Positions 1 to 43,264 of a DNA stretch of 43,264 bases are shown in pieces (the first letter of the stretch is position 1; each line of letters starts with the position of its first letter). Source of the DNA: Escherichia phage Minorna; the sequence record NC_048172.1. The stretch is one strand, 5' to 3'. Made by a program: the position numbers and the translations under genes. The notes under the pieces are model-generated. The model was not told the DNA's origin. It made no database searches and saw nothing but the letters and a program-made list of their open reading frames with translations.

Positions 1-159
1 CGTTGAGGGTGAGGGAGGGCCTCGCGTGAGTATAACAAATTTCGAGTTCAGGTATACACCTGCGCAGGGGAGAAGCCCCTGGGATGTTCCAGGAGCTTCT
101 CTTGTACCTACTTGCAGCCACTAGAGAGTATCCGTGCACTCTAGGTGTCAGTAATATAA

Positions 160-1680
160 CTACCGCTGCGCTGATACCGTCCAGCTAAAGTATTGGTCCC
201 CCGATACATTATTACGAACACGTATAATAATATTCTGACCGGATACCTCAAACCAGAACGGGGCGTTGATATCTGTAGTAGGAGTTACCTGAACGTAGCG
301 ACCTTGTAAGGCGCGCGATATACCGGTAGGTACAGTAACCGAGTTGGTCCCTGAAGCTATCTTAGCTGCCCCAGTATTATAAGTAACATACTGCGGGCAG
401 TTCTCGATGGTGACAGCTGCATCGCTAGCATTACTTATTGCACCGTTTACGTTACCTCGGGCATCTACGTTAACGAACTTAACACCACTACCAATACCGT
501 CAGATATAAAGATCCCGTAACCTTGATTGTTAAACTCGAATACAGGAGTTGCACCAGCCTTAACGTTTGTGAAGTTCACATTCTGCACCCCGGCCCCTAA
601 CTCTATTCCGTGCTTCTGTCCGCGGGTTGCCATACTGTTAGCATTACAACTGATGTTACTGAAGTTAATGCCTCCTACATTATAACCTGTGAGCAGTATT
701 CCTGAGCCTTTATTGTTAACACAGGTCAGTCCGTTAAAGTTCAGGTTCTCAAGCCCACCATTCTCAGCATTAAGATGTACTCCAGGATGTAATGCAGTTG
801 TCCCACAAGAACTTCCCCAGCAACCGTTGAAGTTCAGGTCTGAGACACTGGCTCCCCCAGTAGGGGCAAACATTAACCCGCACTCCTTACAGGTATCGCC
901 TAAGATAGCAGTGTAGAAACTGCCTCTACATTTAGTAGCACCAGACGGTAGCCAGGCGTAACCATACTTCATTCCCAAACAGTCGATGTTAGACGCATAG
1001 ACGCCAGAGGCATTGACCTCCTTAACCCCACATCCTTTACCACCCCCTGACAGTACTAGGTTCTGCAGGAACACATCCTGAACTACAGCCGAGGAGGTAT
1101 CGCCTATCACAATAACATCTTCGCTAGTAGTTGCACCGTTAATGGTACAGTTGTTTACGCGGTAGATAAACTGCTGGGGACCGCCGTGCATCTTAAGGAA
1201 GTTATAGAAGGGACCATCTACACGAACATTCTCCAAGCATAAGTTGTATCCGTTAGTCCACGTAATGAAGTCGCCGCTTGTATGTGTCCCATCCACAATA
1301 ATTTGTAGGTCACGGATATGAACATTATTAATATTGGTAGATGCTGTACCGATGGCTGCAAAAGGCACGTTAATTGCAGAGTATAAAAGTACAGTGCTAC
1401 CCTGTCCTGCCCCCACCAAATGCACGTTATTATAGAATGTAAGAGAGCCCTTTAAAGTCCATGTACCAGAGGGTACAGTTACAGCCCCTCCTCCTAGGCT
1501 GTGAGCGTGATTAATCGCGGCTTGGAAGGCAGCACGCGAGTCAGTATTACCTGGAATAGCTCCGAAGTCTGCAACACTAATGTTATCCATTAGTTTAGAC
1601 TCCATGGTACGTTCAACTGCACCTGTTGCGGATGCTTTCCAGTTAACTAACCATGTAGCCACTTTGGTAAGATTTAGCAT
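160..1680 (-). CDS. tailspike / putative polysaccharide depolymerase (pectate-lyase-like beta-helix)
   Basis: 506-aa ORF, last gene in transcription order. N-terminal region (DISVADFGAIPGNTD..AFQAAINHA..GGGAVTVPSGTWTL) resembles the start of pectate-lyase-3 / right-handed beta-helix domains of phage tailspikes; remainder is Gly/Asn/Ser/Thr-rich. Only ~30 aa precede the enzymatic domain. Confidence 0.7.
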   Translation of the reverse strand: MLNLTKVATWLVNWKASATGAVERTMESKLMDNISVADFGAIPGNTDSRAAFQAAINHAHSLGGGAVTVPSGTWTLKGSLTFYNNVHLVGAGQGSTVLLYSAINVPFAAIGTASTNINNVHIRDLQIIVDGTHTSGDFITWTNGYNLCLENVRVDGPFYNFLKMHGGPQQFIYRVNNCTINGATTSEDVIVIGDTSSAVVQDVFLQNLVLSGGGKGCGVKEVNASGVYASNIDCLGMKYGYAWLPSGATKCRGSFYTAILGDTCKECGLMFAPTGGASVSDLNFNGCWGSSCGTTALHPGVHLNAENGGLENLNFNGLTCVNNKGSGILLTGYNVGGINFSNISCNANSMATRGQKHGIELGAGVQNVNFTNVKAGATPVFEFNNQGYGIFISDGIGSGVKFVNVDARGNVNGAISNASDAAVTIENCPQYVTYNTGAAKIASGTNSVTVPTGISRALQGRYVQVTPTTDINAPFWFEVSGQNIIIRVRNNVSGDQYFSWTVSAQR

Positions 1681-1689
1681 TCTGTTCCC

Positions 1690-2289
1690 TTATCTAGGTA
1701 TAGCAGCAACTGCTGCTTGCGTTGATTTGAATTCATTCCCTATAGCCTTAGATTCCCACATACGGCGCTCCCATAGGCCCCAGCATACCTTATTACGCTG
1801 CCCGTTAATATACTGAGAGCAGTCAAAGGTCCAGCGGTTGCCACCCTTGTACACCCAACCGGTGCCTGGGGATTTCTGCTGGTACTTACTAATGTAACGC
1901 CAGTTCAGCACAGCCTTTCCAGCCGCTGCGTAATCTAGGTTTTTGAGGTGCCGTTTCACGGCGCTGCCATTGAAGCCGGCTACGCCTACGTTGTAGATGA
2001 AGTCTACAGACCCTATCAGAGCCACGTCAGAGAGCTGCATAGGAAGCCCGTCAAGAGCCCTAGCATGTCCCCCTGCTGATTCTATCAGTTGCTTCTGACA
2101 GTCGCTCAGAGTGGCTCTCTGGCCCATTTTGACACCTTTTGTCTCCCCGTAGCAGATCGTAGGGATACCGGCACTGTCTTTGTAGGCCGTAAGGCTCAAA
2201 CCTTCATTGTGCTGGACTACCTCCGTAATAGCCCCGCCAAGCATAGTGGCCCCGGCGAGTGCGGCTATAACCCTAGTCCTTAAACTCAT
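1690..2289 (-). CDS. SAR endolysin (T4-lysozyme-like glycoside hydrolase, GH24-type)
   Basis: Catalytic E-x8-D-x5-T pattern (EGLSLTAYKDSAGIPTICYGET); N-terminal Gly/Ala-rich weakly hydrophobic segment (RTRVIAALAGATMLGGAI) typical of a signal-anchor-release domain. Start set at ATG 2289 (AAGGGGG about 9 nt upstream); the track ORF extends to 2313, where the SD would sit too close. Confidence 0.75.
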   Translation of the reverse strand: MSLRTRVIAALAGATMLGGAITEVVQHNEGLSLTAYKDSAGIPTICYGETKGVKMGQRATLSDCQKQLIESAGGHARALDGLPMQLSDVALIGSVDFIYNVGVAGFNGSAVKRHLKNLDYAAAGKAVLNWRYISKYQQKSPGTGWVYKGGNRWTFDCSQYINGQRNKVCWGLWERRMWESKAIGNEFKSTQAAVAAIPR

Positions 2290-2524
2290 ATTTAATAGCC
2301 CCCTTACGTGCATGCTCCTCTAGGAGCTTGTATGTGCGCCATTTATAGTACGCATTCCACGCCAGGGTTAGCACTGCACACACCGTCGCAGTGATGAAGC
2401 TGATAACACTCCAGTCCCAACTCATTAGCTCTGCCAACCAACCTCCTGAGACTGTAGCACCAGTAACAGCTGCTCCTGCCCGGGTAGCGAGGTCTGCCCC
2501 AACTACATCTCCCACTTTAATCAT
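2273..2524 (-). CDS. putative holin (pinholin-like, Gly/Ala-rich first segment plus one strong TMD)
   Basis: 83 aa; Gly/Ala-rich segment (RAGAAVTGATVSGGWLAEL) followed by hydrophobic helix (VISFITATVCAVLTLAW) and charged C-terminus; sits between spanin and SAR endolysin. Confidence 0.5.
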   Translation of the reverse strand: MIKVGDVVGADLATRAGAAVTGATVSGGWLAELMSWDWSVISFITATVCAVLTLAWNAYYKWRTYKLLEEHARKGAIKYEFKD

Positions 2525-2921
2525 CCTGCTGACCCTTCTTCCTAAATAGCTTACGAATCACCAGAATGGCCACTAGGAAGACCAAAGGGATGCTGGCCCC
2601 TGCTAATCCGGCGAGAATAAGACTGTAACTATCGTTGTTAACCACCTGTAGGCGCTCTGCCTGGATTGTGCCTGTACTAATAGTCTGCACTTGCTTCTTG
2701 CTAGAAGTATCCAGTGTACCTACGTTAGAATCCTGTACATCGGTTTTGTTGGTGGTGCTGGAGTCCACCTTATTATTCAGCCCGAGCATCTGTTTAGTAT
2801 TCTCAGCGCCAACCTGAGCAGATACTTCCGGCTTAGAACCAACTAAGCCGGTCAGTGCAGAGGTCGCTGAGCAACCAGTCAGAGTAACCGCGAGCAGTAA
2901 CCCAGCGACCAGTTTGCGCAT
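2517..2921 (-). CDS. unimolecular spanin (u-spanin, T1 gp11-like topology)
   Basis: 134 aa; N-terminal lipoprotein signal with lipobox (LAVTLTGC), Ser/Thr-rich periplasmic region, and C-terminal TMD (ILAGLAGASIPLVFLVAILVI) followed by RKLFRKKG; within the lysis cassette. Confidence 0.6.
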   Translation of the reverse strand: MRKLVAGLLLAVTLTGCSATSALTGLVGSKPEVSAQVGAENTKQMLGLNNKVDSSTTNKTDVQDSNVGTLDTSSKKQVQTISTGTIQAERLQVVNNDSYSLILAGLAGASIPLVFLVAILVIRKLFRKKGQQDD

Positions 2922-3103
2922 TAGCTAGCCGCCTTCACCGCTGCAATAGCAGCTTCCAGTGCGGCAACCTTAGTGTCGAACGCTGCACCAGTCTGGGCTA
3001 CGTTCTGAGGCTGCGTAAGGATTGCATACAGGTCCTTACCCAGAATGTTCAGTTGACGCAGCAGCTCCTGCTGCTGTGCTTGTGTTGCCTTAGCAATTGC
3101 CAT
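2921..3103 (-). CDS. hypothetical protein (60 aa, Ala/Gln-rich, helical)
   Basis: ORF in the gene-dense minus-strand array; stop overlaps the spanin start; no TMD. Confidence 0.4.
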   Translation of the reverse strand: MAIAKATQAQQQELLRQLNILGKDLYAILTQPQNVAQTGAAFDTKVAALEAAIAAVKAAS

Positions 3104-3116
3104 AGTAATTCTCCTA

Positions 3117-3494
3117 TTATGCTGCAGCAGCGTTAGTCGCTGCTACGAAGGCCGACTGTAGGGCCTTGAATGAGTTGTCGAAGTCCGTACCAGAACCCTC
3201 ACCTAGCGGCATACCTGTACCGGTGAGCGCTACGTAGCCGGTCTTGCTAAGCTGGAACAGCATGGAGAACAGTCGCGCCTGCAGGGTGCCATCATCCTTA
3301 AAGGATTCCCCGACAGCTGTAGCCGAGTAGCCTTGGGACTCCATGTAGGCAAAGAACGTGTTGAATTTATCCAGCGCACCCGTACCCACAAAGCCGACAT
3401 TGTAGTCAGGGGCCACCTCTTTCTCAAGGTTCTGGCTCTTGCCTACAATGGCGTACTGTACATCCGCAGATTTAGCCGCGATGATTGATGCCAT
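3117..3494 (-). CDS. hypothetical protein (125 aa)
   Basis: ORF immediately downstream of the large terminase gene; start overlaps the terminase stop; no recognisable motif. Confidence 0.5.
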   Translation of the reverse strand: MASIIAAKSADVQYAIVGKSQNLEKEVAPDYNVGFVGTGALDKFNTFFAYMESQGYSATAVGESFKDDGTLQARLFSMLFQLSKTGYVALTGTGMPLGEGSGTDFDNSFKALQSAFVAATNAAAA

Positions 3495-5350
3495 TATCGT
3501 CTTCCTCTATGTTGTTTGCCTCTACCCCGACCTTGCAGCCGTGCAGCGACTCCCCGCAACTGTTTCTGGACCATACCCTGTGCCCAGTCCAACGGGTTAT
3601 TGATGAATGCTAGTGCCTGCTTCTCAGACTCTCGTGCAGCTACCACTTTCTCATCTTCTACCAGATGCCCGTTCAGTACTGCTACCATCATAGCGATGGC
3701 GTCTGCTCGGTCATCCTTAGCCAAGCTACCCCGGTCATACGTAATACCTGCGAGCTGTGCGAACGCAGAGTACAACCAGCGACGATCTCGGGGGTATAGC
3801 ATACAAGTCCCAATATCATCGTGAATAGCACGCTCATGCACCACTAGGCGGTGTCGTCGAGTTACTGGACTGATTGTGTCTATGATACGACGTTCTTTCT
3901 GCGTGGTGTTGTTAATGTCACGCACACCAATACCAGCAAGGTGACGCTCTCGTAAGCGGTTCAGAATAAGCATAGACACGGTACCGTGCCCCATGTTACT
4001 CTCTACCACCATGTCAGAGATGTCTAACTCTACGCACAGGTCAATGAGCTTGTCGATATTCTCGGTGCTTACACCTCCTTGGAAGCCCCCAACTGAGAAC
4101 AGATGAATGTATGAGTTAGCAGCCCCGCCCGCAGCATAGGAGACTTCATCCCCACCACAACCAGCTGGGTCCACCACCAGCACCTTGTGCTGATACGGCA
4201 AGTGCATATCTCCGTAGAATGCCGGGAAGTACATCTGCTGACCCATAATCCCCTCATGCTCGTGCTGGTATAAGTACCGGCGGTCCGCAATGTAGGAGAA
4301 GGTCTCTGGGGAGGAATCCTGGCTACCAGAGTAAACCAGCATATCCGAAAGCTTGATACGTGTACGCATCTGGTCGGACAGGGTTGTGTCGAGCATGTAC
4401 TGCAACTGGAAGCCTTCTGGGCCGAAGTCCAACTCCTTCTCAATCAGCGCATCCTCATCGTAGCGACCCTTATCGGTGCTCTCCCCTAACGTCCCATCGA
4501 CGCCGAAGCCGGTGCGTTTATAGCCGCGCTCAATAAGCTCCCGGATATAAGGAGCAAGTGTACTTCCATATCGCTCTTCCATTTCAACAGACGGAATGCG
4601 CCCAGGCCACACGCGGACCTCGAAGCCACGTCCCGGCAGTGTTTTATAGATACTGTCCTTGGTCTGTGGTGTACCCAGGTACAGCGTATCCCCGTGCGTA
4701 CAGATGGCCGCGAAGTCTTTAGAAATCGTCAGCAGCTGCTCGCGCTGGGTTTGCGTTAAGCCGTTCTTGGTGGTCTCGATATCGTCCGGAATCAGTAGGT
4801 CCGCACGCTTCCCCTGTAGGGATGCAGTGATACCTACACAGGCTACGCTGGCGGACTTATCTAGAGGTTTCAGGTCACAGTGTACGTCGTAACCTTCAAA
4901 GGAGGTTCGGTCCCCACGTGTAGGGTCAGCCTTCAAGTAGCACAGCAGCGGCCAGGTTTCCAGCATACGAATAATTAAGTTTGCTACGTCGGAAGCCTGC
5001 TTCTCAGCACCCGACACAATCAGGATACGGCAGGATTGGTCCTGGATGAGCCTCCAGACAGCGTATAGCGCAGCTAGTGTAGACTTAGCCTCACCACGCT
5101 GTGCAGCCACCATGCGCTTCCTAGGGCCCTTCTGCATATACTCTGCAATGTCGGCTTGCATGTCCGTGAGCGTAAAGCCTAGGAAGCGCATACCTATATA
5201 TGCGAACTCCCTGAAATTACTGAGGGTAGCCGCCATCATCATGGCGATATCCTCGCGCTCCTCTTTGGGAATACTGCGCGGGTTCGCATTATAACCAGTA
5301 AGTTTCTGGTTGAGCATGCGCAGTCTTCGCGCAGTCTTCACCGATACCAT
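3494..5350 (-). CDS. terminase large subunit (T7 gp19-like DNA maturase B)
   Basis: 618-aa ORF at the position and size of T7-like large terminases, with ATPase-like N-terminal half and nuclease-like C-terminal half; directly follows the putative small subunit. Confidence 0.85.
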   Translation of the reverse strand: MVSVKTARRLRMLNQKLTGYNANPRSIPKEEREDIAMMMAATLSNFREFAYIGMRFLGFTLTDMQADIAEYMQKGPRKRMVAAQRGEAKSTLAALYAVWRLIQDQSCRILIVSGAEKQASDVANLIIRMLETWPLLCYLKADPTRGDRTSFEGYDVHCDLKPLDKSASVACVGITASLQGKRADLLIPDDIETTKNGLTQTQREQLLTISKDFAAICTHGDTLYLGTPQTKDSIYKTLPGRGFEVRVWPGRIPSVEMEERYGSTLAPYIRELIERGYKRTGFGVDGTLGESTDKGRYDEDALIEKELDFGPEGFQLQYMLDTTLSDQMRTRIKLSDMLVYSGSQDSSPETFSYIADRRYLYQHEHEGIMGQQMYFPAFYGDMHLPYQHKVLVVDPAGCGGDEVSYAAGGAANSYIHLFSVGGFQGGVSTENIDKLIDLCVELDISDMVVESNMGHGTVSMLILNRLRERHLAGIGVRDINNTTQKERRIIDTISPVTRRHRLVVHERAIHDDIGTCMLYPRDRRWLYSAFAQLAGITYDRGSLAKDDRADAIAMMVAVLNGHLVEDEKVVAARESEKQALAFINNPLDWAQGMVQKQLRGVAARLQGRGRGKQHRGRR

Positions 5351-5658
5351 TAGACAATTCCTTCTAGTAAGTCCTCAGAGTCTGAACCACTAATCTTGTT
5401 CAAAATCTCTTTCTTACGCGCCTCTCTGCGCGCCGCTAGTTCGTCATCGAATTCATCACGTAGCTCCTGCATCTCCTCGGAATCTGCATCGGCGGTGATG
5501 TCATTGTCTTTCAGGAACTTGGCAATAACAGATTTATCAGCAGCCGGTAAAGGGACCGCATCTTCCCCGGCCTGACGCAGCTCCTCAATAAGTGCCTCCG
5601 TGAACATGCGGTGCAGTTCGCTGAGTCGGCTACGCGTTCCTGCCTTGGATACAGCCAT
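5350..5658 (-). CDS. putative terminase small subunit (DNA maturase A)
   Basis: 102-aa acidic helical protein immediately upstream of, and translationally coupled to, the large terminase; assignment by position and size only. Confidence 0.5.
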   Translation of the reverse strand: MAVSKAGTRSRLSELHRMFTEALIEELRQAGEDAVPLPAADKSVIAKFLKDNDITADADSEEMQELRDEFDDELAARREARKKEILNKISGSDSEDLLEGIV

Positions 5659-5667: not shown

Positions 5668-6009
5668 TTACCAGCCCACGGTGTAAATCAGAGCACCCAC
5701 TGGGAGTTCACTGGCGAAAGTTACAGTAGCCCCGCTGAGCGTGTAGCTATAGCCGGGAATCTGAATAACCCCATTGATGTAGATATCTACATCCGTGTAG
5801 GTGTTAGTTAAGGTAAAGGTAGTCCCTGCCTTGGATACAGTCAGGTACGCCGATGTACGGACACCCGGCTTAAGCGGCTTACCCCCAGCAGTGCTGCCAT
5901 CTCCAATGGTCAAAGTGTTGCTAGTGGTCAGAAGAACCAACTCCCCGGCCTTCAACACCTTGGTTGCCACTACGGCATCAGCACCTCGGCGTAGTTGTAA
6001 AGTTGGCAT
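5668..6009 (-). CDS. small tail-fiber-like protein (paralog 2)
   Basis: 113 aa; N-terminus MPTLQLRRG..AGELVL..GDGSTAGGKP parallels the adjacent 149-aa ORF and resembles N-terminal motifs of phage fiber proteins. Confidence 0.5.
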   Translation of the reverse strand: MPTLQLRRGADAVVATKVLKAGELVLLTTSNTLTIGDGSTAGGKPLKPGVRTSAYLTVSKAGTTFTLTNTYTDVDIYINGVIQIPGYSYTLSGATVTFASELPVGALIYTVGW

Positions 6010-6021
6010 TTCTACCCCCTA

Positions 6022-6471
6022 TTAGGTAATGACACCCAGGTCAATATTTTGCAACGTAGTATTGATGGTAACAGCAGCTGAGCCGTCAAAGTTAGCTGTA
6101 CCACTCACGTCACCAGACAATGCAATAGCTCTGGCAGTAGTCAGCTTAGCAGCACTACCCGTGGTGTTGACACTAGCAGTACCGGTTAGCAAGTTTGCTG
6201 GTACATCGGTAACTGCAAACGTAACGTCAGCACTACCGTCGAAACTTTGAGGAGCCGCCGTAATACCGGAGAAGCCAATAGTTCGAGCAGTCTTCAGTTT
6301 ATCGGCGGTGGATGCCGGGGTACCGGCACCTACCGGGAAGCCACCTGCGGTTGTACCATCACCCACGTAGATAATTTTAGCGGTGCTGTCATACACCAGC
6401 TCCCCGGCAAGCGGGATATACTTAGAGACCTGGGCGGTAGTCCCACGTTTAAGTTGTAAAGTTGGCATCAA
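6022..6471 (-). CDS. small tail-fiber-like protein (paralog 1)
   Basis: 149 aa; N-terminus MMPTLQLKRG..AGELVY..GDGTTAGGFP; Thr/Ala/Gly-rich remainder; follows the fiber adaptor gene. Confidence 0.5.
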   Translation of the reverse strand: MMPTLQLKRGTTAQVSKYIPLAGELVYDSTAKIIYVGDGTTAGGFPVGAGTPASTADKLKTARTIGFSGITAAPQSFDGSADVTFAVTDVPANLLTGTASVNTTGSAAKLTTARAIALSGDVSGTANFDGSAAVTINTTLQNIDLGVIT

Positions 6472-7220
6472 AGTTCTCCTAAGTCCATGTTATATACATA
6501 CTCTTTTAAGTCGTCGAACTCAGACCGTGACACTGCATCCAAGTCCGTCGAATCCTGTCCGATACGCACAGACACTACTGTACCAGCCGGAATTGTCTCA
6601 GCCAGGATAATCTGGTTGTTCACAATACTGAACCCGTAACCGATATCCTGGTGCACCCCATCAAGATACAAGGTGGCACGAGTAAATCGGTACGGTGGGC
6701 TGATGATATTAGTCGGGACCGTGGTAACAGTACACCACGGGATAGTCACATCATCTGTGTTTATACCCTGCTCAAGCGCGGTTACACGGGCATCTACTAC
6801 ATCCAGCTGTCCCTTGTTTACAGCGTCTCCGGGATTAACACCATCCCCAAGATTGGTAATCCGGTAGCCGTTCATGCTTATATCCCCGTAGAATCCGGGG
6901 ATGGCCCTACCCTCCACCAGCTCTTGAGCTAAGTGTAAGAACTGTGTGTTTTGAGAGTCTACGTTCACCTCGATGAATGGGGAACCGCTAGCAAACTCAA
7001 TGTACAGATACTCGCGCTCAGTCTTGCGAATGAGCAGTACCGTCGTATCCGCTGTCAAGGCTGTGTTCAGCCTAATATTTGTAGAGCTGGTCCAGGTGTA
7101 CCCAGTGGTTTCAACGCCGTCGAGATATACATGAATATAGGACTTGTCCAAATATTCAATATCACACTGGATATCCTGGGTACCAGCTGGCTTGATTTGC
7201 TCTTGCCAGCTGTATGCCAT
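6468..7220 (-). CDS. tail fiber protein / adaptor (T7 gp17 N-terminal-domain-like, no large distal domain)
   Basis: 250-aa ORF directly after the internal virion protein genes, the canonical gp17 position; too short to carry a full receptor-binding domain. Confidence 0.6.
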   Translation of the reverse strand: MAYSWQEQIKPAGTQDIQCDIEYLDKSYIHVYLDGVETTGYTWTSSTNIRLNTALTADTTVLLIRKTEREYLYIEFASGSPFIEVNVDSQNTQFLHLAQELVEGRAIPGFYGDISMNGYRITNLGDGVNPGDAVNKGQLDVVDARVTALEQGINTDDVTIPWCTVTTVPTNIISPPYRFTRATLYLDGVHQDIGYGFSIVNNQIILAETIPAGTVVSVRIGQDSTDLDAVSRSEFDDLKEYVYNMDLGEL

Positions 7221-19415: not shown

Positions 19416-19429
19416 TTATACCTCTGTTG

Positions 19430-21025: not shown

Positions 21026-21034
21026 GCTTCCTCC

Positions 21035-21735: not shown

Positions 21736-21758
21736 TCCTACTCCTGTAACATTAAATT

Positions 21759-35225: not shown

Positions 35226-36006
35226 TCAAAGCCTCTAGTATCTCTTTGATTTCTGCGTCCTTCGGGTCCGCAGCGAAGTAGTGTTCTCGGCATTGCATGA
35301 ACGGGCGCAGCGCTTTGCGTGCCGCTGCTACCCCAGCATGCCCTGCCAGGTCATTGTCCAGCATTAGAATCACTTCCGGGCGATTCTGAATCAGCCAGGC
35401 CCTTAGCTGCGTGGGCAAGCGTGTACCCAGCATAGCTATAGCCTGCACGTTCAACGCACTGTAGCTCGTAACTGCGTGCTGTATCTTCCGGGCTGAGAGT
35501 AAGTCCTCGGTGAGCACGACCTTTAGAGGTGCGGCCGCAGCTACAGCCGGTGCTACGGCAGGTGCCGCGACAGCGAAAGCTATTGGCTGGCCGTACATTA
35601 CCCACTTCGGTTGCTGCCGGGCATGAACAGCACGGCCCAGTACAGCACCCCCGACACAGAATAGTATCCGCTGTTTCTCGTTGCTCCACTCTGCATCCTC
35701 CACCATTTCAGGCATGATTCCTTTTGAAGCAAGGAATCCGTAAATAAAACTCTGCGTTTCCGCAGGCGCTTGGCTAATGCAAATTGCATCTGCAGGTGCA
35801 GAGGGCTGCACCCTCGGCTCTTCCTGTAACTGTATGCGCTGGTACTGCTTGCGCTCCTTGCCTACCTGTTTGCAGCGGTGGCAATAGTATTCCCAGGCAT
35901 CCGGGTTATTGTAGAGCACCCCGGCGGCGTCCCTGCCGCAGCACCGAAAGCGTGCCCTCTGCCCCACGGCCAGGCGCTTGCACGCTCTAAGCCAGGGTTG
36001 GTCCAT
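35218..36006 (-). CDS. DNA primase (zinc-binding N-terminus plus TOPRIM domain)
   Basis: 262 aa; N-terminal Cys pairs (RCCGRD..CHRCKQ) and TOPRIM-like acidic motifs (VVLTEDLLSARK..ILMLDNDLAGHAG). Confidence 0.75.
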   Translation of the reverse strand: MDQPWLRACKRLAVGQRARFRCCGRDAAGVLYNNPDAWEYYCHRCKQVGKERKQYQRIQLQEEPRVQPSAPADAICISQAPAETQSFIYGFLASKGIMPEMVEDAEWSNEKQRILFCVGGAVLGRAVHARQQPKWVMYGQPIAFAVAAPAVAPAVAAAAPLKVVLTEDLLSARKIQHAVTSYSALNVQAIAMLGTRLPTQLRAWLIQNRPEVILMLDNDLAGHAGVAAARKALRPFMQCREHYFAADPKDAEIKEILEALNV

Positions 36007-36212: not shown

Positions 36213-36678
36213 GTGCTTTCCCCTTGCGTTTGATATCCATAGCCATGCGACGAAGGTCGTGTGCTAATTGCAGGGCTGCGTCGGGACTCATATTAATACC
36301 GATCTCCCGCTCCGCCCGGGTGCTGTTCTTTCTAGGAACTACTCCGATGTAGAGTAGGTTCTCATCAGTCCAACTGCATCTTTCTAGGACTAGCCGCTGA
36401 TCGTTGCCGTGGTCGCGCTTGGAGTTCATGTAAGCCACACTAGCTGGAACCGGTGGCAGCTCGTCGTCAGGCTCTTGGTACAGTTTGAAGTTAGGTGCAT
36501 ACCACGGGCAACAGTCATAGTCGATAGTAAAGTTATCCAACTGCAGCCAGTGGCCGCTTGAGGTCATAGCTGTAACTGTGTAGTAATCAAAATCCCCTTG
36601 GTGCTTCTTAAACGGCGAGCGGTCGTCGGGTGATTTGCGTACTACTTTATCACCAATTTTAAACTTAGACATAATCAA
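36205..36678 (-). CDS. hypothetical protein (157 aa)
   Basis: ATGA-type overlap with the upstream peptidase-like gene; no recognisable motif. Confidence 0.5.
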   Translation of the reverse strand: MIMSKFKIGDKVVRKSPDDRSPFKKHQGDFDYYTVTAMTSSGHWLQLDNFTIDYDCCPWYAPNFKLYQEPDDELPPVPASVAYMNSKRDHGNDQRLVLERCSWTDENLLYIGVVPRKNSTRAEREIGINMSPDAALQLAHDLRRMAMDIKRKGKAHV

Positions 36679-37709
36679 CCCTCCACAATATTATCGTATC
36701 CACCCCAGTCCTCTACAACTCGGGTGCCTAGTTCAATCAGTTCTTCTTTGAAGCCATAATCAGAATACACCATGATGTATTCCGCCGCCCTTGCTGGGTT
36801 ATCTAGCACCCAGCTAATCAGTTGCTGCTTAGAAAGTTGTGACACCTCCTTAAACGCTGCTAGTAAATGCGGATCTTCCGCAGGGGGAACATCCAGGGGC
36901 ATCGTTAGGGGATGCGTATAGGCAGATAACCACGTATCCGGTTCCACTACTTTAGGATCACGCTCAATCGGCAGGTGCTTGAATGTACCTGGACTGAGTA
37001 CGTGCTCCAGTACGCTGCCAAGAATGCTAAGGTCCAGCACCTCATCCGGAGTATGCTCGTGCATGTACCCTACACCTACGTTAGTGCATTCCGGGATAAT
37101 CTGCATGAACTCAGCGGAGTCCGTGTATACCCCTTTCTGTAAGTGCGCATCCGTTCGTCCTAATCGGGCCGCCAGCTCCTTTGCAAACGTATCAGAACAG
37201 CAACGTTGGTATCGTTGATGCGTAATGATCCCATCCCCACGGCGGTCAAAGCTAATCATTGCCTTGACCCCAGTCCAGAAGCCAGTATCATCTTTTGCGG
37301 ATGCACTGCTACCCTCACAGCCTACTTCTTCATCCACGAAGAAGCAGTAGCGTCCATGTACTCCCTGCCTAATCATCTCCAGCATCAAGTAGATACCAGC
37401 ACCACAGTCTGCACCTAGACAGTCCGCCACCTGTGGATTCCGCAGGAACATTACACCCTTGTTAGTGATTGCAATGTCTGGCGCAGCGCTACCAGGCCGG
37501 GCCACTGTATCCAGATGTGAAGTAAACGCTACATCACTCTGTTCAGAGCCGCCAATAAGCACAAAGTAGTTACCATGAGCGTCTCTTACATAGTGCTCTG
37601 CACCAGCAAGAGCGCTACTAAGTAGCGGCTCAAACCATTTGGTACTACCCCAGCTAGGTCGGTGCGTTGTTAGTATCTTTGTTAGTAGTTTAAGGTCAAC
37701 ACCATACAT
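36675..37709 (-). CDS. putative zinc metallopeptidase-like protein (M20/M28/M42 aminopeptidase-like fold)
   Basis: 344 aa with metal-ligand-like motifs in the order expected for co-catalytic aminopeptidases: TSHLDTV (HxD), GADCGAG, FFVDEEVGCEGS (EE pair), GYMHEHTPDE (distal His/Glu). By-eye motif match only. Confidence 0.5.
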   Translation of the reverse strand: MYGVDLKLLTKILTTHRPSWGSTKWFEPLLSSALAGAEHYVRDAHGNYFVLIGGSEQSDVAFTSHLDTVARPGSAAPDIAITNKGVMFLRNPQVADCLGADCGAGIYLMLEMIRQGVHGRYCFFVDEEVGCEGSSASAKDDTGFWTGVKAMISFDRRGDGIITHQRYQRCCSDTFAKELAARLGRTDAHLQKGVYTDSAEFMQIIPECTNVGVGYMHEHTPDEVLDLSILGSVLEHVLSPGTFKHLPIERDPKVVEPDTWLSAYTHPLTMPLDVPPAEDPHLLAAFKEVSQLSKQQLISWVLDNPARAAEYIMVYSDYGFKEELIELGTRVVEDWGGYDNIVEG

Positions 37710-39409
37710 TAAGCTGCCTCCTGTTCTGCTTTAGCTTCTTTGTCTTCTTCGGCTTCTTCATTACCGAGGTAGGGCTCATCCAATACGGACGCAGCATACT
37801 CCGTGAGAATCATACCGTGCACGGGGTGCTCTTCGGCATGCACACTCAGAACATTGTACCCTTGTACGCACACCATTGGCTCTTCATCATGCACTGTACC
37901 CTCTACAGCACAATGTTCTACGTCCCGGTCAAGTACCCAAGAGTCGTGGTAGTCAGACCATGAGCAATCCCATGATGGGTACACTACGCTGCGGCCCACT
38001 ACCTGTACGTAAGTATCACCGATGCAGTGCGGGCATACATAACCACCGTCACAAGCTACGTACATGTCATCCTCGTCGAAGCGTCCCCCGCACTCTACAC
38101 AAGCGCTGCGACCATCATCAATCCAAATGTACCCATCAGCGTCCTGCGCTTCGTAGTCGTAACAGTCGCAGATACAGAATGCATCCCCGCCCAATTCATC
38201 CACCCCGTCTTGGTTCCCATCCAAGTACGGCATAAGCACGGCACCGTCATGCTCTGGGTGCGGGATACGCGCCAGCGTTGCACCATCTAAGCAGTCTGTA
38301 TCTAGCTCATACCCATTAGCACGTAGAATGGCGTCCGCAGCATCCCCGTATGCACGGACGTATTCATTGGTTTCGATGTTAACGATAGCGCGGGCGTGCA
38401 CTTTAAAATCATCGCCAAAAAGTTCACCAGTATACTGGATGAACAAGCGCAGCCCATTATCCGGCAAGCCGTGACTAGTCGTGGCATATACACGCACCGG
38501 GCTAGCCTCGAAGTCGTATCCGGTCATGCAGCTACGAGGACCATTCTCGTATGCGTAGTACCACTCCCGTTCGGTCTTACAAAGATATGTAGTAGGCTCC
38601 ACGTTCATAGCTTTGAGGTCTTCAATACATTCCCGGAAGTCTACACCGCCTCCGTAATAATTAGCGAGCAACTTGCCTGCCCGCATCTCTACACAGCGAT
38701 ACTCAGTAACAGCGGCGTAGTCTTTGTGTAATCGCGGCTGCCCCAGCATTACTACAGGCTCACCGTTGCGGAAGCCAAAACCTAGAGGGATTGCAAATCT
38801 AGACACTACAAATCCGTGCAACTGCATAAGCAAGGTTGCTGCCCAAGAGTCCCCATCATACACACTGTACCCACGAAGGTATTTGGCCCGGAGGGAGTGA
38901 GTAGGTGCTAGCATAATCTCTTCGAACAACTCTATAGCCTGTTTGTGCACCTTGTATCCGGTAAAGTATTGGACCGCTTCTACTACACGCTCTGTAACTA
39001 CATCAGGGCCATCATAGAAGGTTCTGCTAGATAAACCGAATGCTTGGTCGCAGGTACCTGCACAGTCAAAGAGCTTATACAGGAGAGTGTCACTAATATC
39101 AACCGTGCCCAGCGGCCCAACATACCCACCCAAATCCTCTCCTGCAGCTGTAAAGTTGCCGAGTGCTACAATATACCCCGGCAGCACCCTTGAAAACATA
39201 TAAAAGCCATTCAAAAGCGCACGGGTTTTGTTACTTTGCACGCGCGCACGGCCTTGAGTTGATAGGCAGGGAAGTTGGCACCAGTAATCCCCGGAAGAGT
39301 ACATACTATCCTTCAGTGGGAGAGCATTGGCCCCTTCTGGAAATTTGATGGTCCAACTCTCATAGGCAGGTACTTTTACGTCTACGGTTACTTTGTTAGT
39401 CTCTTGCAT
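37709..39409 (-). CDS. large early hypothetical protein, acidic with Cys-rich C-terminal region (566 aa)
   Basis: Largest early ORF; start set to ATG 39409 (GGAGA about 8 nt upstream) because the track ORF to 39703 overlaps the upstream gene by about 250 nt; C-terminal region has CxC and CxxC clusters (CICDC..CVECGG..CPHC) in a strongly acidic context; Glu/Ala-rich tail. Confidence 0.55.
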   Translation of the reverse strand: MQETNKVTVDVKVPAYESWTIKFPEGANALPLKDSMYSSGDYWCQLPCLSTQGRARVQSNKTRALLNGFYMFSRVLPGYIVALGNFTAAGEDLGGYVGPLGTVDISDTLLYKLFDCAGTCDQAFGLSSRTFYDGPDVVTERVVEAVQYFTGYKVHKQAIELFEEIMLAPTHSLRAKYLRGYSVYDGDSWAATLLMQLHGFVVSRFAIPLGFGFRNGEPVVMLGQPRLHKDYAAVTEYRCVEMRAGKLLANYYGGGVDFRECIEDLKAMNVEPTTYLCKTEREWYYAYENGPRSCMTGYDFEASPVRVYATTSHGLPDNGLRLFIQYTGELFGDDFKVHARAIVNIETNEYVRAYGDAADAILRANGYELDTDCLDGATLARIPHPEHDGAVLMPYLDGNQDGVDELGGDAFCICDCYDYEAQDADGYIWIDDGRSACVECGGRFDEDDMYVACDGGYVCPHCIGDTYVQVVGRSVVYPSWDCSWSDYHDSWVLDRDVEHCAVEGTVHDEEPMVCVQGYNVLSVHAEEHPVHGMILTEYAASVLDEPYLGNEEAEEDKEAKAEQEAA

Positions 39410-39455
39410 TTTCTTTGTCTCCGGTGTTAATAGTATCTCATCATGTATTAAAAGT

Positions 39456-39800
39456 TCAGCGCGCATACCACGCAGAGAGCTGTCGCTGCTTATAGTATGA
39501 GCGCACAGCCGCCCTAAATCTTGTATACGCTCCACGATACCCATACCGTAGCAGTGCTGCGACCACATCGAACGCAATGTGCTCTTGCAATCTGCGCGCG
39601 GCAGACTCTGTATACTCTCGATAGGTTGTGAGAACAGTGCCAGTACCCTCTTTTCTAACGCGGAGTAATCGACGCTCAACTGGTACGATTTGCTTGAGTT
39701 CATTAGGAACCTCTTTGAATGTTTCCCAAGTGCAGCCGCACTTGCCTTGTGTTTCCAGCAAGCGCCAACACAGTAGCGCTGTTTCGTCTACTGTGAGCAT
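39456..39800 (-). CDS. hypothetical early protein (114 aa)
   Basis: Arg-rich small ORF in the early array. Confidence 0.5.
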   Translation of the reverse strand: MLTVDETALLCWRLLETQGKCGCTWETFKEVPNELKQIVPVERRLLRVRKEGTGTVLTTYREYTESAARRLQEHIAFDVVAALLRYGYRGAYTRFRAAVRSYYKQRQLSAWYAR

Positions 39801-39802
39801 AT

Positions 39803-40006
39803 TTAATCCTTGAATACTACGTTGCGGGCCACGAGGGTAATCCCACTACCAGCTACTACATCGCCAACTGTGGCATGTGCCTGCATCCACCCACCATACA
39901 CTTTGAGGTATAACTCGGCGGGTTTGTGCAGCGCGTTATGCAGTTGCACTCGGTACAGTACCCCGTACTGACTCTTGTACAAGTCATACTTAACTAGTTC
40001 ATTCAT
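39803..40006 (-). CDS. hypothetical early protein (67 aa)
   Basis: ATG overlaps the upstream stop in an ATGA arrangement. Confidence 0.45.
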   Translation of the reverse strand: MNELVKYDLYKSQYGVLYRVQLHNALHKPAELYLKVYGGWMQAHATVGDVVAGSGITLVARNVVFKD

Positions 40007-40182
40007 ATTACACCTCGCACATTAAAACGTTGACAGTAACCGCGCAGGGTCATACCCAGCCGCTTTGCTTGTTTCTCATAGTGCTGGCGCAGCGCTGCTT
40101 TTGCGGTGTACTCCCGCGCCAGTCCGTCGATTGTTGGTTGCTGCTTACGCATCAGCAGCACCTCAGGATTCTTTCCGTACAT
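40003..40182 (-). CDS. small early ORF (59 aa), absent from the ORF track
   Basis: ATG 40182 with GAGGT 6 nt upstream; stop overlaps the next start; fills an otherwise unexplained 180-nt gap in a tightly packed array. Confidence 0.3.
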   Translation of the reverse strand: MYGKNPEVLLMRKQQPTIDGLAREYTAKAALRQHYEKQAKRLGMTLRGYCQRFNVRGVI

Positions 40183-40189
40183 CTTTACC

Positions 40190-40453
40190 TCAAATATCGT
40201 TGTTGCTTACACCGTCCACGGTCAGAGTTACAGCGATGTTGGGTTCTTGCTCTCGCACCGCCTTAAGTAGGCGAATACCTAACGCCTTGCAACCTCCCTC
40301 TGGATTCTCAAAGAGGTCATACTCAGGGCGCGGTTGCTGCTCTTGATGCTGCCCTTGTTGAACGTGTACAGTGCAATAGGGCACTGGGTTATTCACGTCG
40401 TTGCCTAGCACCAGCATGGCGCTGGTAACAATGATGTTGACAATACTAGTCAT
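40190..40453 (-). CDS. hypothetical early protein (about 87 aa)
   Basis: Start set to ATG 40453 (GGAGA 7 nt upstream); track ORF extends to 40483 and would overlap the upstream gene. Confidence 0.45.
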   Translation of the reverse strand: MTSIVNIIVTSAMLVLGNDVNNPVPYCTVHVQQGQHQEQQPRPEYDLFENPEGGCKALGIRLLKAVREQEPNIAVTLTVDGVSNNDI

Positions 40454-40667
40454 AAAGTTGTCTCCAGTCGGTAACAATACCAAGATTCACGGCGTCCAGC
40501 AAAGTACGCGCCGCCATTTCGGTGCAAGTATCTACGAGATCTAAAGGGGATTCCTGATTGGTGTCGCGGTCAGAGAATATCATTACAGTGTAGTTGTACT
40601 CTGTATGCACTTGATTGCACCATATGGGCCAGAGTACATGCCCCGGATAGATTAGCTTTGCTTTCAT
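40446..40667 (-). CDS. hypothetical early protein (73 aa)
   Basis: ATG preceded by GAGGT and by the conserved dyad element 24 nt upstream. Confidence 0.5.
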   Translation of the reverse strand: MKAKLIYPGHVLWPIWCNQVHTEYNYTVMIFSDRDTNQESPLDLVDTCTEMAARTLLDAVNLGIVTDWRQLYD

Positions 40668-40690
40668 TTGAAACCTCGTTGTTAACGGTA

Positions 40691-40720
40691 TTCACATAGC
40701 GCCCCGCAGGACGCTATAGG
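40691..40720 (-). promoter_or_regulatory. conserved dyad element, copy 1 (atagcg-N10-cgctat)
   Basis: Plus strand ttcacatagcgccccgcaggacgctatagg; 26 of 30 nt identical to copy 2, with a compensatory pair change in the stem; lies in a 188-nt intergenic gap; a perfect TATAAT (minus strand, 40732-40727) sits just upstream. Confidence 0.5.
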
Positions 40721-40855
40721 CTTACCATTATACGTATTCTCCCAATCCCTCATAGTGCCACCTGTTATGGCGGCCTCGGGTTGGCACATCAAAGGCGTCA
40801 GAGTCGTTAGCTGCCGGAATCAGTGCTCACCACTTGATAGCTTGAATCTTATAAA

Positions 40856-41431
40856 TCATGCCGCTACCTTCAAAGTTGCATCCAGCACAGCGCGTACATC
40901 CACGCCCTGACTGATAAGCATAGATACCAAATCAGAGTCGCTCACCCCAGTTTCTTTAGCCTTCTTGATAGCGTTTTTAACGCGCCCCAGAGCTTGCAGA
41001 CGCACTGCATCGGCATCAAGGGCATCATTCTTCACCTGCTCTGCTTCGGCGTTGTACAGGGCCATACAAGCGCTATAGAAGCTGGCCACAATCACTTCAC
41101 GGCCTTGCTTGTCAGCTTGTTTATAGTCCAAACGCATAGTGTCCAGTTCAATGCCCAGCTTTTCAGCCGACGCATAGCACTTTTTAGCGTGGAATTCGTA
41201 CTTGCCCGATTCCTTGTTGAACTTGATAGGCAGCAGTGTACGCAGCACCATATCGAAATCGGCGGCATCACTGCGCTGCATATCCGTCGCCCAAGAAACG
41301 TTGCTACTAATCAGGCCGTGGAACAGAGCGCTGATAGTAATATTGCGTTTTGCTTCCACTACATCGCCCAGCGCCTTGCGAATGCTGCCAGCAGCGGTTA
41401 ATTTGAATACTCTACCAGTTGAATGAGTCAT
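40856..41431 (-). CDS. hypothetical early protein (191 aa)
   Basis: Second gene of the early region; GAGGT 5 nt upstream of the ATG; no recognisable motif. Confidence 0.55.
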   Translation of the reverse strand: MTHSTGRVFKLTAAGSIRKALGDVVEAKRNITISALFHGLISSNVSWATDMQRSDAADFDMVLRTLLPIKFNKESGKYEFHAKKCYASAEKLGIELDTMRLDYKQADKQGREVIVASFYSACMALYNAEAEQVKNDALDADAVRLQALGRVKNAIKKAKETGVSDSDLVSMLISQGVDVRAVLDATLKVAA

Positions 41432-41466
41432 GATGCACCTCTTTGATTGGTTGTTTAGGTAATTAC

Positions 41467-41496
41467 TTCACATAGCACCCCATAGGATGCTATAGG
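41467..41496 (-). promoter_or_regulatory. conserved dyad element, copy 2 (atagca-N10-tgctat)
   Basis: Plus strand ttcacatagcaccccataggatgctatagg; relative to copy 1 the stem changes G/C to A/T at paired positions; 36 nt upstream of the ATG at 41431. Confidence 0.5.
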
Positions 41497-41502
41497 CTGT
41501 AA

Positions 41503-41718
41503 TTAGCGTCCGAACTGCCCAGCAGTATACCAGCCTTGTGGCACCTTGCTACTTCCCCTTGTTTTGGTCTTACCGCGTACATTCGTACTAAACGTCGCAG
41601 ATTGCTTCATCCGCATATACCCAGCACGATTCAGCGCATCCCGGCGTTTTCTCAATTCAGGACCGGATAACTTCTCGAGTCCAGCGAACTGTTGTGCTAA
41701 CTTCTCACGATATTTCAT
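41503..41718 (-). CDS. first early gene, small basic protein (71 aa)
   Basis: ATG 41718 preceded by GAGGAGG; the track ORF (41733) begins at an in-frame TTG lying inside the SD, so it is over-extended. Confidence 0.5.
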   Translation of the reverse strand: MKYREKLAQQFAGLEKLSGPELRKRRDALNRAGYMRMKQSATFSTNVRGKTKTRGSSKVPQGWYTAGQFGR

Positions 41719-42266
41719 TGTGTACCTCCTCAAAGTTAATGATTAACGCCCTAGCAGTATTTAGCAGGACGCTAATTCTTAACCTTGTTGCCCACTGCAC
41801 TACCGTGGAACCTGTGGTTCAGGTCTCGGCGCTATTCTTTTAAGGGGCAGCGCCTCAGCGCCCCAGCCGTTTGTCATCTCGGCCCTTGATGTTACTTCTG
41901 AACTGCACTGATTATCTAGGATTGGTCGTCATCGTACCAGTCAAGGTACTGGGCCTCCCCGCAAATCAGCTTACTACGCCTTGCTTGCTTACTAAGTTAC
42001 TGCTTATCGCTCAGCTTGTCAATCACTTTCTTTCGTTCGGTCATCCGGTGCTTCATACGCCACCGGCAGCTACTGCGTGGGCTTTCCCTCCCTCCCGAAC
42101 TACTTTGATTTGTTTACCGTGTCCGCATACTCCGGTAAACGGTGCTTTCCCTAGCGGGTATCCGGCAGGCTTCGCGGTTCCTATCCGTTCCCCCTTTGGC
42201 GCGTCCTTGTATCACTCCCCGCCGTGTCGCGCCTTCCGTTGCGCCTCCTCCGTATTGCTTGGATTC

Positions 42267-42295
42267 AATCTAGCCTATGTTCTTCGCGGTGTCAA
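42267..42295 (-). promoter_or_regulatory. candidate sigma70-type early promoter (TTGACA-N17-TAGATT on the minus strand)
   Basis: Plus-strand tgtcaa at 42290-42295 and aatcta at 42267-42272; correctly oriented and spaced for minus-strand transcription toward the early genes. By-eye hexamer match only. Confidence 0.25.
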
Positions 42296-42499
42296 CCCTT
42301 TTTGTTGAGTATATAACCCTTCACACTATCTAGCCTTAATCCGGCGGAGTCTCCCGACTCTGCCCCGTTCAGCGCCTCAGCGCCTCCCGGTGATTGAACT
42401 ATAGCGCCAATAAACCAAAGGAAGCAAGCACTTTTTTAAACTTTTTATCACTAGGAGCAAAAAGGGTAAGCAGGGCAATGATTTAGCCAATGCCTCCAT

Positions 42500-42549
42500 T
42501 CTAGGGATAGCTCTAGGGATAGCCCAATACTAGCCAATACTAACTAATA
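42500..42549. repeat. tandem 12-mer tctagggatagc x2 followed by ccaatacta(g/a)-type tandem units
   Basis: Plus strand tctagggatagctctagggatagc then ccaatactagccaatactaactaatac. Confidence 0.85.
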
Positions 42550-42771
42550 CCATTTAACGCTACACAAAGCAGAGCGCAGTGACGTAACGGGAGTGGAGTC
42601 ACGGAGCGATGCGGTGACTGTGTAGGTAATGCTTACTCCCTACGGTCGTAATATAGGGCATTACTAGGGGATACTAGTGAATAGTAGTAAGTAGTATGTA
42701 TCTAGTGCCCTAAAACCCTCCTACTCGTGTAACATCATTTCTAAATAGCTTTCGAATGAAAGTAAGGGGAA

Positions 42772-42792
42772 AGGGATAGCTCTAGGGATAGC
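42772..42792. repeat. second copy of the gggatagc-tctagggatagc repeat
   Basis: Plus strand agggatagctctagggatagc, about 270 nt from the first copy. Confidence 0.85.
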
Positions 42793-42879
42793 AAAGGATA
42801 ACGCTAGGTGGCGGATAGTGGAAGTGCGCCCTAGTGGGGAGCGCGCAGCGTAGCATATAATCGGCACAATGTAAAGCAC

Positions 42880-42913
42880 TAGAGATAACCCTAGAGATAG
42901 CTCTAGAGATAGC
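42880..42913. repeat. variant repeat ctagagataaccctagagatagctctagagatagc
   Basis: Same CTAG-(G/A)GATA(G/A)C unit family with G to A variants; agagataaccctag recurs at 43051-43064. Confidence 0.85.
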
Positions 42914-43050
42914 ATATAGACGCACTAGCAGCGCACTGGGCGGCCCACTCGGCACATACTATGGCCCACTACTGGCCCACTGGGCGGCCCGCTAGAGGTC
43001 CGCAAAATAAGCAAGGCAGAGCGCACCTCTACGCCCCACAGAGAGCACGC

Positions 43051-43091
43051 AGAGATAACCCTAGTGCCCCTCAGTGCCTCCCTAGTGCCTC
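43051..43091. repeat. tandem ccctagtgcc-like units
   Basis: Plus strand agagataaccctagtgcccctcagtgcctccctagtgcctc. Confidence 0.8.
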
Positions 43092-43187
43092 TACGAGAGG
43101 CGCATAGTGATAGGCATAGGGTTACCCTAGTGATAGCCATTAAGGCGCGCAGGGAGCTTCTGCGGCCCTCCTAGAGCGCCCTCAGCT

Positions 43188-43211
43188 GGCCATCTAGACG
43201 TCTAGACGGCC
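43188..43211. repeat. 24-bp near-perfect palindrome (ggccatctagacgtctagacggcc) at the extreme end
   Basis: Perfect 12-bp core ctagacgtctag at 43194-43205; one mismatch in the outer arms; immediately followed by a C13 homopolymer (43210-43222) and a ccccc-tat-gggggg inverted repeat (43241-43254). Confidence 0.85.
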
Positions 43212-43264
43212 CCCCCCCCCCCTCCTTTATACGCTAGGCACCCCCTATGGGGGGCAATTGGGCG

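Follow-up and report, generated by a model that had tools for sequence, protein, structure and literature searches.

Results

A minus-strand genome with a mid-genome RNA polymerase

The window, that is, the whole stretch of DNA analyzed here, comprises the 43,264 nt of the sequence record of Escherichia phage Minorna (NC_048172.1). Coordinates are those of the window, and "genome sense" denotes its reverse complement, following the convention for phage KP34. Read along the minus strand from position 43264 downward, it opens with ~1.5 kb of non-coding DNA and continues with early genes of unknown function, a peptidase gene, the genes for replication and DNA metabolism, the gene for a T7-type RNA polymerase (RNAP), and finally the structural, terminase, lysis and tailspike genes. 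Very nearly certainly, the window represents a KP34-like podovirus of the T7 supergroup that is strictly lytic and belongs to the species Drulisvirus minorna; its genome is present in full, as one unit length that includes the predicted terminal repeat once, and is recorded in reverse-complement orientation. All genes and regulatory elements described below lie on the minus strand.

Of the 70 open reading frames (ORFs) of at least 100 amino acids (aa), all the long ones are on the minus strand. A greedy selection that yielded 61 minus-strand ORFs without overlap accounts for 96.7% of the 43,264 bases. When 58 minus-strand ORFs were searched against PHROG profiles (and 30 of those against Pfam), 55 could be assigned to a PHROG family; the other three are an ORF of 45 aa and a pair located in the non-coding left end. 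None of the 10 longest plus-strand ORFs (136-189 aa), which served as a control, had a family. Minorna thus displays the single-strand coding of the T7 supergroup, in keeping with an earlier note on this DNA that had claimed strand uniformity. GC content stays between 0.48 and 0.55 along the entire window, and GC skew is negative in all 2-kb windows with a cumulative curve that drops monotonically and shows no inflection, a steadiness that fits one replicon with one direction of transcription. A tRNA scan of the window returned no tRNA gene.

The RNAP gene (22107-24575) encodes a single-subunit DNA-dependent enzyme of 822 aa that is recognized by Pfam RNA_pol (E 4e-90, 303 bits) as well as by RPOL_N, and its residues 13-821 align with solved T7 RNAP structures (E 2e-69); the phage-encoded, T7-type single-subunit RNAP by which the T7 supergroup is recognized is thus present. 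The protein is identical to Minorna protein QBP07075.1 and shares 95.6% of its residues, Y603 among them, with the biochemically characterized RNAP of KP34. In genome sense the gene occupies positions 18690-21158, or 43-49% of the length, and it is flanked by the endonuclease VII, PNKP phosphatase and dGTP_diPhyd_N genes on one side and by the portal-scaffold-capsid block on the other, which agrees with the mid-genome position between replication and structural modules put forward in the earlier note. According to Lu et al. 2019 (PMC6834552), an RNAP gene at mid-genome behind the DNA-metabolism genes is typical of phiKMV-like viruses, whereas T7, SP6 and Syn5 carry it ahead of these genes, in T7 as an early gene near the left end. 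With respect to the placement of its RNAP, the architecture of Minorna is therefore of the phiKMV type.

Downstream of the RNAP gene, the PHROG scan revealed a T7-like podovirus virion module with portal, scaffold, capsid, tail tubular A and B and internal core proteins. Two small late genes at 21035-21735, which encode a 146-aa protein (phrog_5167) and an 87-aa virion structural protein (PHROG), are followed by those for the 531-aa portal or head-tail connector (19430-21025; phrog_449, E 4e-159), the 290-aa scaffolding protein (18543-19415; phrog_1018, E 2e-67), the 339-aa major capsid protein (17499-18518; phrog_267, E 4e-95), and a 65-aa ORF (17290-17487). Next come tail tubular protein A (16641-17201; phrog_446, E 5e-61), for which the start was taken from the annotation of phage AV102, the 792-aa tail tubular protein B (14253-16631; phrog_457, E 1e-231), internal virion protein A (13670-14251; phrog_4295, E 1e-79), the 894-aa internal virion protein B (10970-13654; phrog_2083, 1082 bits), and a 1232-aa internal core or ejectosome protein (7222-10920; phrog_342, E 1e-238). 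The terminase region (3494-5658), likewise defined by PHROG, consists of the small-subunit gene at 5350-5658 (phrog_891, E 2e-30) and the large-subunit gene at 3494-5350 (phrog_38, E 9e-115). The likeness to T7 (Studiervirinae) thus extends from full-length homology of the RNAP to T7-type portal, capsid, tail tubular, internal core and terminase proteins. Such a gene content bears out the assignment to T7-like Autographiviridae made earlier, a name in older usage where one would now speak of the order Autographivirales.

The same PHROG scan of 58 ORFs contained no "integration and excision" or repressor family, and a Pfam scan of the small ORFs detected no HTH or integrase domain and no recombinase or excisionase, so that the earlier claim of absent lysogeny genes stands. 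Furthermore, megablast of both halves of the window against 5,426 complete E. coli genomes returned no match, which argues that Minorna is neither a prophage nor a host fragment. None of the marks of a temperate phage or prophage (an integrase or recombinase, a repressor, an integrated copy) was therefore found.

Minorna among the KP34-like phages

Searched by megablast, the two halves of the window matched 298 and 266 phage records, almost all of them KP34-type podophages of Klebsiella, Escherichia, Shigella and Vibrio. The VIRIDIC-like intergenomic similarity amounted to 92.0% with Escherichia phage AV102, the closest of them, 77.0% with Shigella phage SFN6B, 68.1% with KP34 and 2.9% with phiKMV. 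Members of a genus, as delimited by the International Committee on Taxonomy of Viruses (ICTV), are expected to be ~70% or more similar in nucleotide sequence genome-wide. On this scale AV102 and SFN6B, the latter an ICTV species, place Minorna within Drulisvirus, and the value for phiKMV lies far outside the range of Phikmvvirus (Krylovirinae). NCBI taxonomy lists the phage (MK598851 / NC_048172.1) under Autographivirales, Autoscriptoviridae, Slopekvirinae, Drulisvirus and Drulisvirus minorna.

The alignment of the window's reverse complement with KP34 spans KP34 nt 16 to nt 43608 and consists of 18 segments, all in order and with no rearrangement. AV102 (OR352933) is colinear with Minorna over 97.4% of the window, relative to which it is circularly permuted by 998 nt. 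Taken together, these two alignments uphold the view of the earlier note that the window is one single genome in reverse complement, and the comparison with reference genomes and proteomes, which that note had named as its check, gave no sign of a chimeric or host-derived sequence. AV102 shares with Minorna the tailspike, the small Mtd_N proteins, the SLOG gene and the PNKP phosphatase, all described below, but it lacks an HNH endonuclease (29951-30385) and a 62-aa ORF (33128-33316); its left half is more diverged than the rest (90.5% versus 96.5%), and at ~92% it falls below the 95% species line. The authors of AV102 named Minorna (NC_048172.1) as its closest relative with 95% cover and 96.5% identity, in agreement with the 92% computed here.

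KP34 (NC_013649), the type of Drulisvirus, has the same gene order from end to end, nearly all proteins in common, and the same terminator position and lysis cassette order; its 16-mer strong promoter recurs identically at two orthologous sites (S1) and with a one-base difference at a third (S2). What sets it apart is a single 307-aa tail-fiber or adaptor protein combined with an unrelated 630-aa capsule-depolymerase tailspike, its host being Klebsiella, five HNH genes at other sites, and the lack of the SLOG, PNKP and 149-aa Mtd_N genes. The more distant Pseudomonas phage phiKMV (NC_005045; Phikmvvirus) has 16 proteins that are colinear with those of Minorna at 25-46% aa identity, and it resembles Minorna in that the RNAP gene ends the DNA-metabolism block beside the structural genes, in one-strand coding, in terminal repeats (predicted for Minorna), and in a multi-ORF tail-fiber region ahead of the terminase genes. 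However, it differs in its lysis order, its promoters, the presence of a DNA ligase and a direct terminal repeat (DTR) of 414 bp. The phiKMV-type label given in the earlier note can hence be retained for the architecture but not for the lineage, which is that of KP34 and Drulisvirus. Judged from these sequence comparisons, the genome varies in its receptor-binding genes, in a few accessory genes and across its left half.

Genome ends

KP34 carries an annotated DTR of 216 bp. When its ends were aligned by BLAST with the circularized window junction, KP34 nt 1 preceded the window break by 15 nt, KP34 nt 216 mapped to window position 43019, and the unique right arm of KP34 continued across the break into the repeat. 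AV102 is also continuous across the junction, window 42261-43264 corresponding to AV102 2-998 and window 1 to AV102 999. By these alignments the window would not run from terminus to terminus but be a collapsed unit with a single predicted repeat. The predicted terminal repeat would measure ~261 bp (window 15-1 plus 43264-43019), present as one collapsed copy, the window having been opened 15 nt inside it: homology to the 216-nt DTR of KP34 puts its main part at 43019-43264, and the alignment of the KP34 ends puts its first 15 nt, CCCTCACCCTCAACG in genome sense, at 1-15. For comparison, the abstract describing fHe-Kpn01 gives a terminal repeat of 222 bp.

A C13 homopolymer (G13 in genome sense) is located at 43210-43222, inside the predicted repeat and ~42 nt from the break; AV102 has C9 in its place and KP34 an interrupted run. 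It could be the cause of the assembly break at the window end and is likely a site of sequencing or assembly uncertainty. Among metagenome and Logan contigs with the same tailspike, a 43,533-bp scaffold continues for 217 nt after the tailspike stop codon and so passes the window break by 58 nt before it ends, and two short contigs extend >1.5 kb past the tailspike gene. The closure-PCR primers printed in the 2019 announcement of the genome map to window 282-302 and 42842-42861 and so flank the junction. Both match the plus strand, however, and would not, as written, amplify across it; presumably one of them was printed as its reverse complement.

Promoters, terminator and left-end repeats

A 19-mer is present four times on the minus strand versus 0 matches in 100 shuffles of the window, and its core is the strong promoter of the KP34 RNAP, T(A/G)ATGTTACAGGAGTA. 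In KP34 the strong promoters were defined by in vitro transcription and 5'-RACE at nt 475, 22197 and 33721 (PMC6834552). An exact copy of strong promoter S1, TAATGTTACAGGAGTA, at 21739-21754 immediately precedes the first late gene (KP34 nt 22197-22212), and a second exact copy at 10162-10177, inside the internal core gene, is orthologous to KP34 nt 33721-33736. Near the left end, at 42722-42737, lies the S2 strong-promoter variant TGATGTTACACGAGTA, which differs by a single G-to-C change, and a homologue of the KP34 "weak" promoter with 1 mismatch lies at 22135-22154 within the 3' end of the RNAP gene (KP34 ~22144-22163). The S1 copies, S2 and the weak-promoter homologue occupy orthologous positions in AV102, SFN6B and KP34; Minorna thus has the KP34-type promoters at conserved positions that characterize Drulisvirus. 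The promoter sequences of T7 are unrelated to those of Minorna except for the TAAT start.

A fourth promoter-like element, TAATGTGATACGAGTA followed by GGA, is situated at 30409-30424 in an intergenic position downstream of the polymerase block. Its sequence departs from that of the KP34 strong promoter in 3 positions and is conserved, 16/16, at the corresponding site of AV102, SFN6B and KP34 (nt 12983), a site that is not among the KP34 promoters given in the passages of Lu et al. 2019 (PMC6834552) consulted here. Part of the middle gene block may be transcribed from this element. The sequences on either side of it are conserved too, and conservation alone is no proof of promoter function. 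The G-to-C change at position 11 of the S2 variant does not occur in AV102, SFN6B or KP34; a C at position 11 is also found in the conserved fourth element, and this coincidence suggests that position 11 of the promoter tolerates G or C.

A strong intrinsic terminator with a 12-bp stem, 9 GC pairs and a T10 tract follows the capsid gene and the 65-aa ORF (17257-17284), and in KP34 a terminator is likewise annotated there (26623-26660). In each of the three segments, a sigma-70 promoter scan yielded fewer sites than did the shuffled controls, and a single sigma-70-like site, at 42267-42295, was plausible for the early region. At the left end there are four copies of short direct repeats of the AGGGATAGCTCTAGGGATAGC family (42503-42913) in addition to CACT(A/G)G-rich repeats, and KP34 aligns across this repeat-bearing part at ~70-74% nucleotide identity. 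The regulatory motifs of Minorna are the known KP34 elements, conserved as expected.

Early, DNA-metabolism and accessory genes

ORFs called in the left-end non-coding region with its short repeats (41734-43018) have no PHROG match. The early small genes that follow (39456-41733) comprise seven ORFs, all of which belong to PHROG families of unknown function (E 1e-21 to 1e-105): they encode proteins of 71 aa (41503-41718), 191 aa (40856-41431), 73 aa (40446-40667), 87 aa (40190-40453), 59 aa (40003-40182), 67 aa (39803-40006) and 114 aa (39456-39800), the 59-aa protein containing DUF7267, the sole Pfam domain among them. The gene for a large early protein whose function is unknown (37709-39703; phrog_6980, 1058 bits; 60% aa identity with KP34 gp10) is the largest early gene and is conserved in KP34-like phages. 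A Pfam scan of its product found no domain, and its start is ambiguous, giving 586 aa from 39469 or 664 aa from 39703, with an overlap of the upstream 114-aa ORF.

Beyond a 344-aa peptidase-like protein (36675-37709; phrog_4191, E 1e-143), the DNA-metabolism genes encode a 262-aa DNA primase (35218-36006; phrog_47, E 1e-35) with 93% aa identity to KP34 gp14, a DnaB-like replicative helicase of 426 aa (33514-34794; phrog_19, E 3e-71), a family A DNA polymerase of 788 aa (30765-33131; phrog_9556 and phrog_17, E 1e-150 and 1e-136), a metallo-phosphoesterase of 326 aa (28978-29958; phrog_221, E 9e-106), a 5'-3' exonuclease of 322 aa (26092-27060; phrog_107, E 4e-69) and a 140-aa endonuclease VII (25519-25941; phrog_423, E 9e-45). 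They end with a 164-aa HAD-type PNKP phosphatase-domain protein (25028-25522; Pfam HAD_PNKP, E 3e-21), an accessory gene with no counterpart in KP34 or SFN6B, and with a 104-aa protein bearing the N-terminal domain of dATP/dGTP diphosphohydrolase, dGTP_diPhyd_N (24717-25031; Pfam PF18909, E 4e-34).

The 144-aa HNH homing endonuclease (29951-30385; phrog_6254, E 2e-27) has no match at that site in AV102 or SFN6B, and identical or near-identical copies of it are carried by Klebsiella phages such as KpV71. In phage phiHAO78-1 the equivalent position is likewise taken by an HNH gene, and 4-5 HNH genes are found at different sites in other relatives; the gene in Minorna looks like a typical presence/absence polymorphism. 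A gene for a 112-aa SLOG/YAcAr-family protein (21759-22097; Pfam PF10686, E 2e-14) forms an insertion that separates the stop codon of the RNAP gene from promoter S1; it is shared with AV102 only, where the copy is 100% identical, and is absent from SFN6B, KP34 and phiHAO78-1. SLOG domains are associated with nucleotide signaling and conflict systems.

Lysis cassette and receptor-binding genes

The lysis cassette (1690-2921; PHROG lysis families) follows the KP34 order of spanin, holin and endolysin. Its first gene (2517-2921) encodes a protein with the lipobox LTGC and a C-terminal transmembrane segment, features that identify it as a unimolecular spanin. The holin gene (2273-2524) predicts a single transmembrane domain, from one hydrophobic segment, and the lysozyme-family endolysin (1690-2289; Pfam Phage_lysozyme) has a Gly/Ala-rich hydrophobic segment at its N-terminus that resembles a signal-arrest-release (SAR) sequence. 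The cassette is 99-100% identical to that of AV102 and 87-96% identical to that of KP34, and, as expected of Drulisvirus, it is followed by the terminal tailspike gene.

The tail-fiber adaptor (6468-7220; 250 aa) contains the N-terminal domain of T7 gp17 (Pfam Phage_T7_tail, E 3e-17; phrog_2710). Between it and the terminase genes, adjacent and in the same frame, lie two small paralogous genes (5668-6471) for proteins with an N-terminal Mtd_N (major tropism determinant N-terminal) domain (Pfam PF18454, E 3e-12 and 4e-9), one of 149 aa (6022-6471) and one of 113 aa (5668-6009). Among 50,697 phage records the 149-aa protein has a close match in AV102 only, its distant matches being tail fibers of Pseudomonas phage Ep4 and of cyanophages; KP34 and SFN6B are devoid of its gene and match the 113-aa one only weakly and in part. 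The two proteins are probably extra small tail fibers of the receptor-binding complex. The last gene (160-1680) encodes a 506-aa tailspike with a pectate-lyase-like beta-helix (Pfam PF12708, E 2e-14), which is identical to Minorna QBP07052.1 and 98.8% identical to the tailspike of AV102, the only phage sharing it at high identity. This protein would be the main host-range determinant. Its next relative is the 1096-aa tail fiber of Kuravirus WFI101126, with whose C-terminal part residues 11-504 show 43% identity, a likeness indicating that a receptor-binding module has been exchanged between unrelated groups of E. coli podophages. The differences in the receptor-binding genes are ordinary modular exchange of host-range genes.

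Discussion

Several points weigh against reading the window as the complete genome of a KP34-like podovirus with a collapsed terminal repeat. Self-BLAST and a repeat search found no duplicated termini in the window, and both the repeat and its exact ends were placed by homology alone; the similarity values come from our own BLAST-based approximation of VIRIDIC; and transcription timing, promoter use and the lysis mechanism, as proposed below, would follow KP34 and T7 by analogy. A further point is the 2019 announcement (PMC6554615), in which the genome has the same 43,264 bp, 51% GC and a lysis cassette "at the beginning" and lacks tRNAs. On the basis of transmission electron microscopy it calls the phage a "myophage", and it also terms it "T1-like", labels that conflict with the gene content; headful packaging, which it reports according to PhageTerm, conflicts with the repeats of KP34 and fHe-Kpn01. 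Were the announcement correct on all counts, Minorna would be a T1-like myophage packaging by headful, and it does possess a unimolecular spanin, a type originally described from T1. Nevertheless, not a single sheath, tube, baseplate or tape-measure family was detected by PHROG in the 58 ORFs, which instead encode the T7-like virion module and a T7-type RNAP; its nucleotide matches are almost all Drulisvirus-like podophages, with no T1-like record among the megablast hits, and ICTV and NCBI assign the phage to Drulisvirus. This makes the combined proposal very improbable. To headful (pac) packaging without fixed DTRs, in spite of the homology to the KP34 repeat, we grant slightly more, though still little, credence. 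A random opening would fall within ±15 nt of the KP34-homologous terminus in only ~30/43264 cases (probability ~7e-4), and because only 15 nt separate the break from the counterpart of the left end that was determined by experiment in KP34, we suspect that PhageTerm caught a real fixed end on one side only. If headful packaging were true after all, Minorna would be a T7-supergroup phage with a changed DNA-end strategy.

Membership of the phiKMV group proper (Phikmvvirus, Krylovirinae) could perceivably be argued from the shared module order and RNAP position, from the 16 colinear homologues, and from aa identities of 34% for the RNAP, 45% for the DNA polymerase and 46% for the terminase. A nucleotide similarity as low as 2.9%, however, refutes it at the level of both genus and subfamily; moreover, the lysis genes run spanin-holin-endolysin in Minorna versus holin-endolysin-Rz/Rz1 in phiKMV, the Minorna promoters are of the KP34 type, and the megablast matches include no Pseudomonas phiKMV-like record, such that hardly any likelihood is left for this placement. 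Just as little is left for a contig that is chimeric, host-derived or part of a temperate element. We found no support for such an origin, the HNH homing endonuclease being the only mobile-looking element; colinearity with KP34, AV102 and SFN6B is unbroken across a genome of uniform GC and monotonic GC skew, no E. coli genome matched, no integrase, excisionase or repressor was detected, and closure PCR was reported by the authors of the announcement (PMC6554615). We thus retain the reading of Minorna as a complete, strictly lytic, KP34-like member of Drulisvirus.

By analogy with KP34 and T7, the infection cycle of such a phage could be envisaged as follows. Starting at the left end (the right end of the window), host RNA polymerase would transcribe the early genes and those for DNA metabolism, including the phage RNAP gene at the end of this block. 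The phage RNAP would then fire from the T(A/G)ATGTTACAGGAGTA promoters at the head of the structural block, in the internal core gene and near the left end, which together would express the capsid, tail, ejectosome, terminase, lysis and tailspike genes, and the terminator behind the capsid gene would raise the level of capsid mRNA relative to that of the downstream genes. Lysis would be brought about by the holin, the SAR-type endolysin and the unimolecular spanin, and host range would be conferred by the adaptor, the two small Mtd_N proteins and the beta-helix tailspike.

The Minorna genome has been published previously and classified by ICTV, and nothing fundamentally new has emerged from it here; as a phage of a well-studied kind it has little discovery value. 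The earlier note had expected novelty in the early region, the regulatory motifs and the host-range and lysis cassettes, and this was only partly right: the receptor-binding genes, some accessory genes and the left half did prove variable, but the promoters are those known from KP34 and the lysis cassette is conserved. The labels of the announcement (myophage, T1-like, headful) should not be propagated. What merits further attention is the receptor-binding module that is common only to Minorna and AV102, the few accessory genes, and the conserved fourth promoter-like element. Taken together, the findings on Minorna are best read against the biology of KP34, that is, its promoters, its terminator, its lysis cassette and its anchor-plus-tailspike mode of receptor binding.

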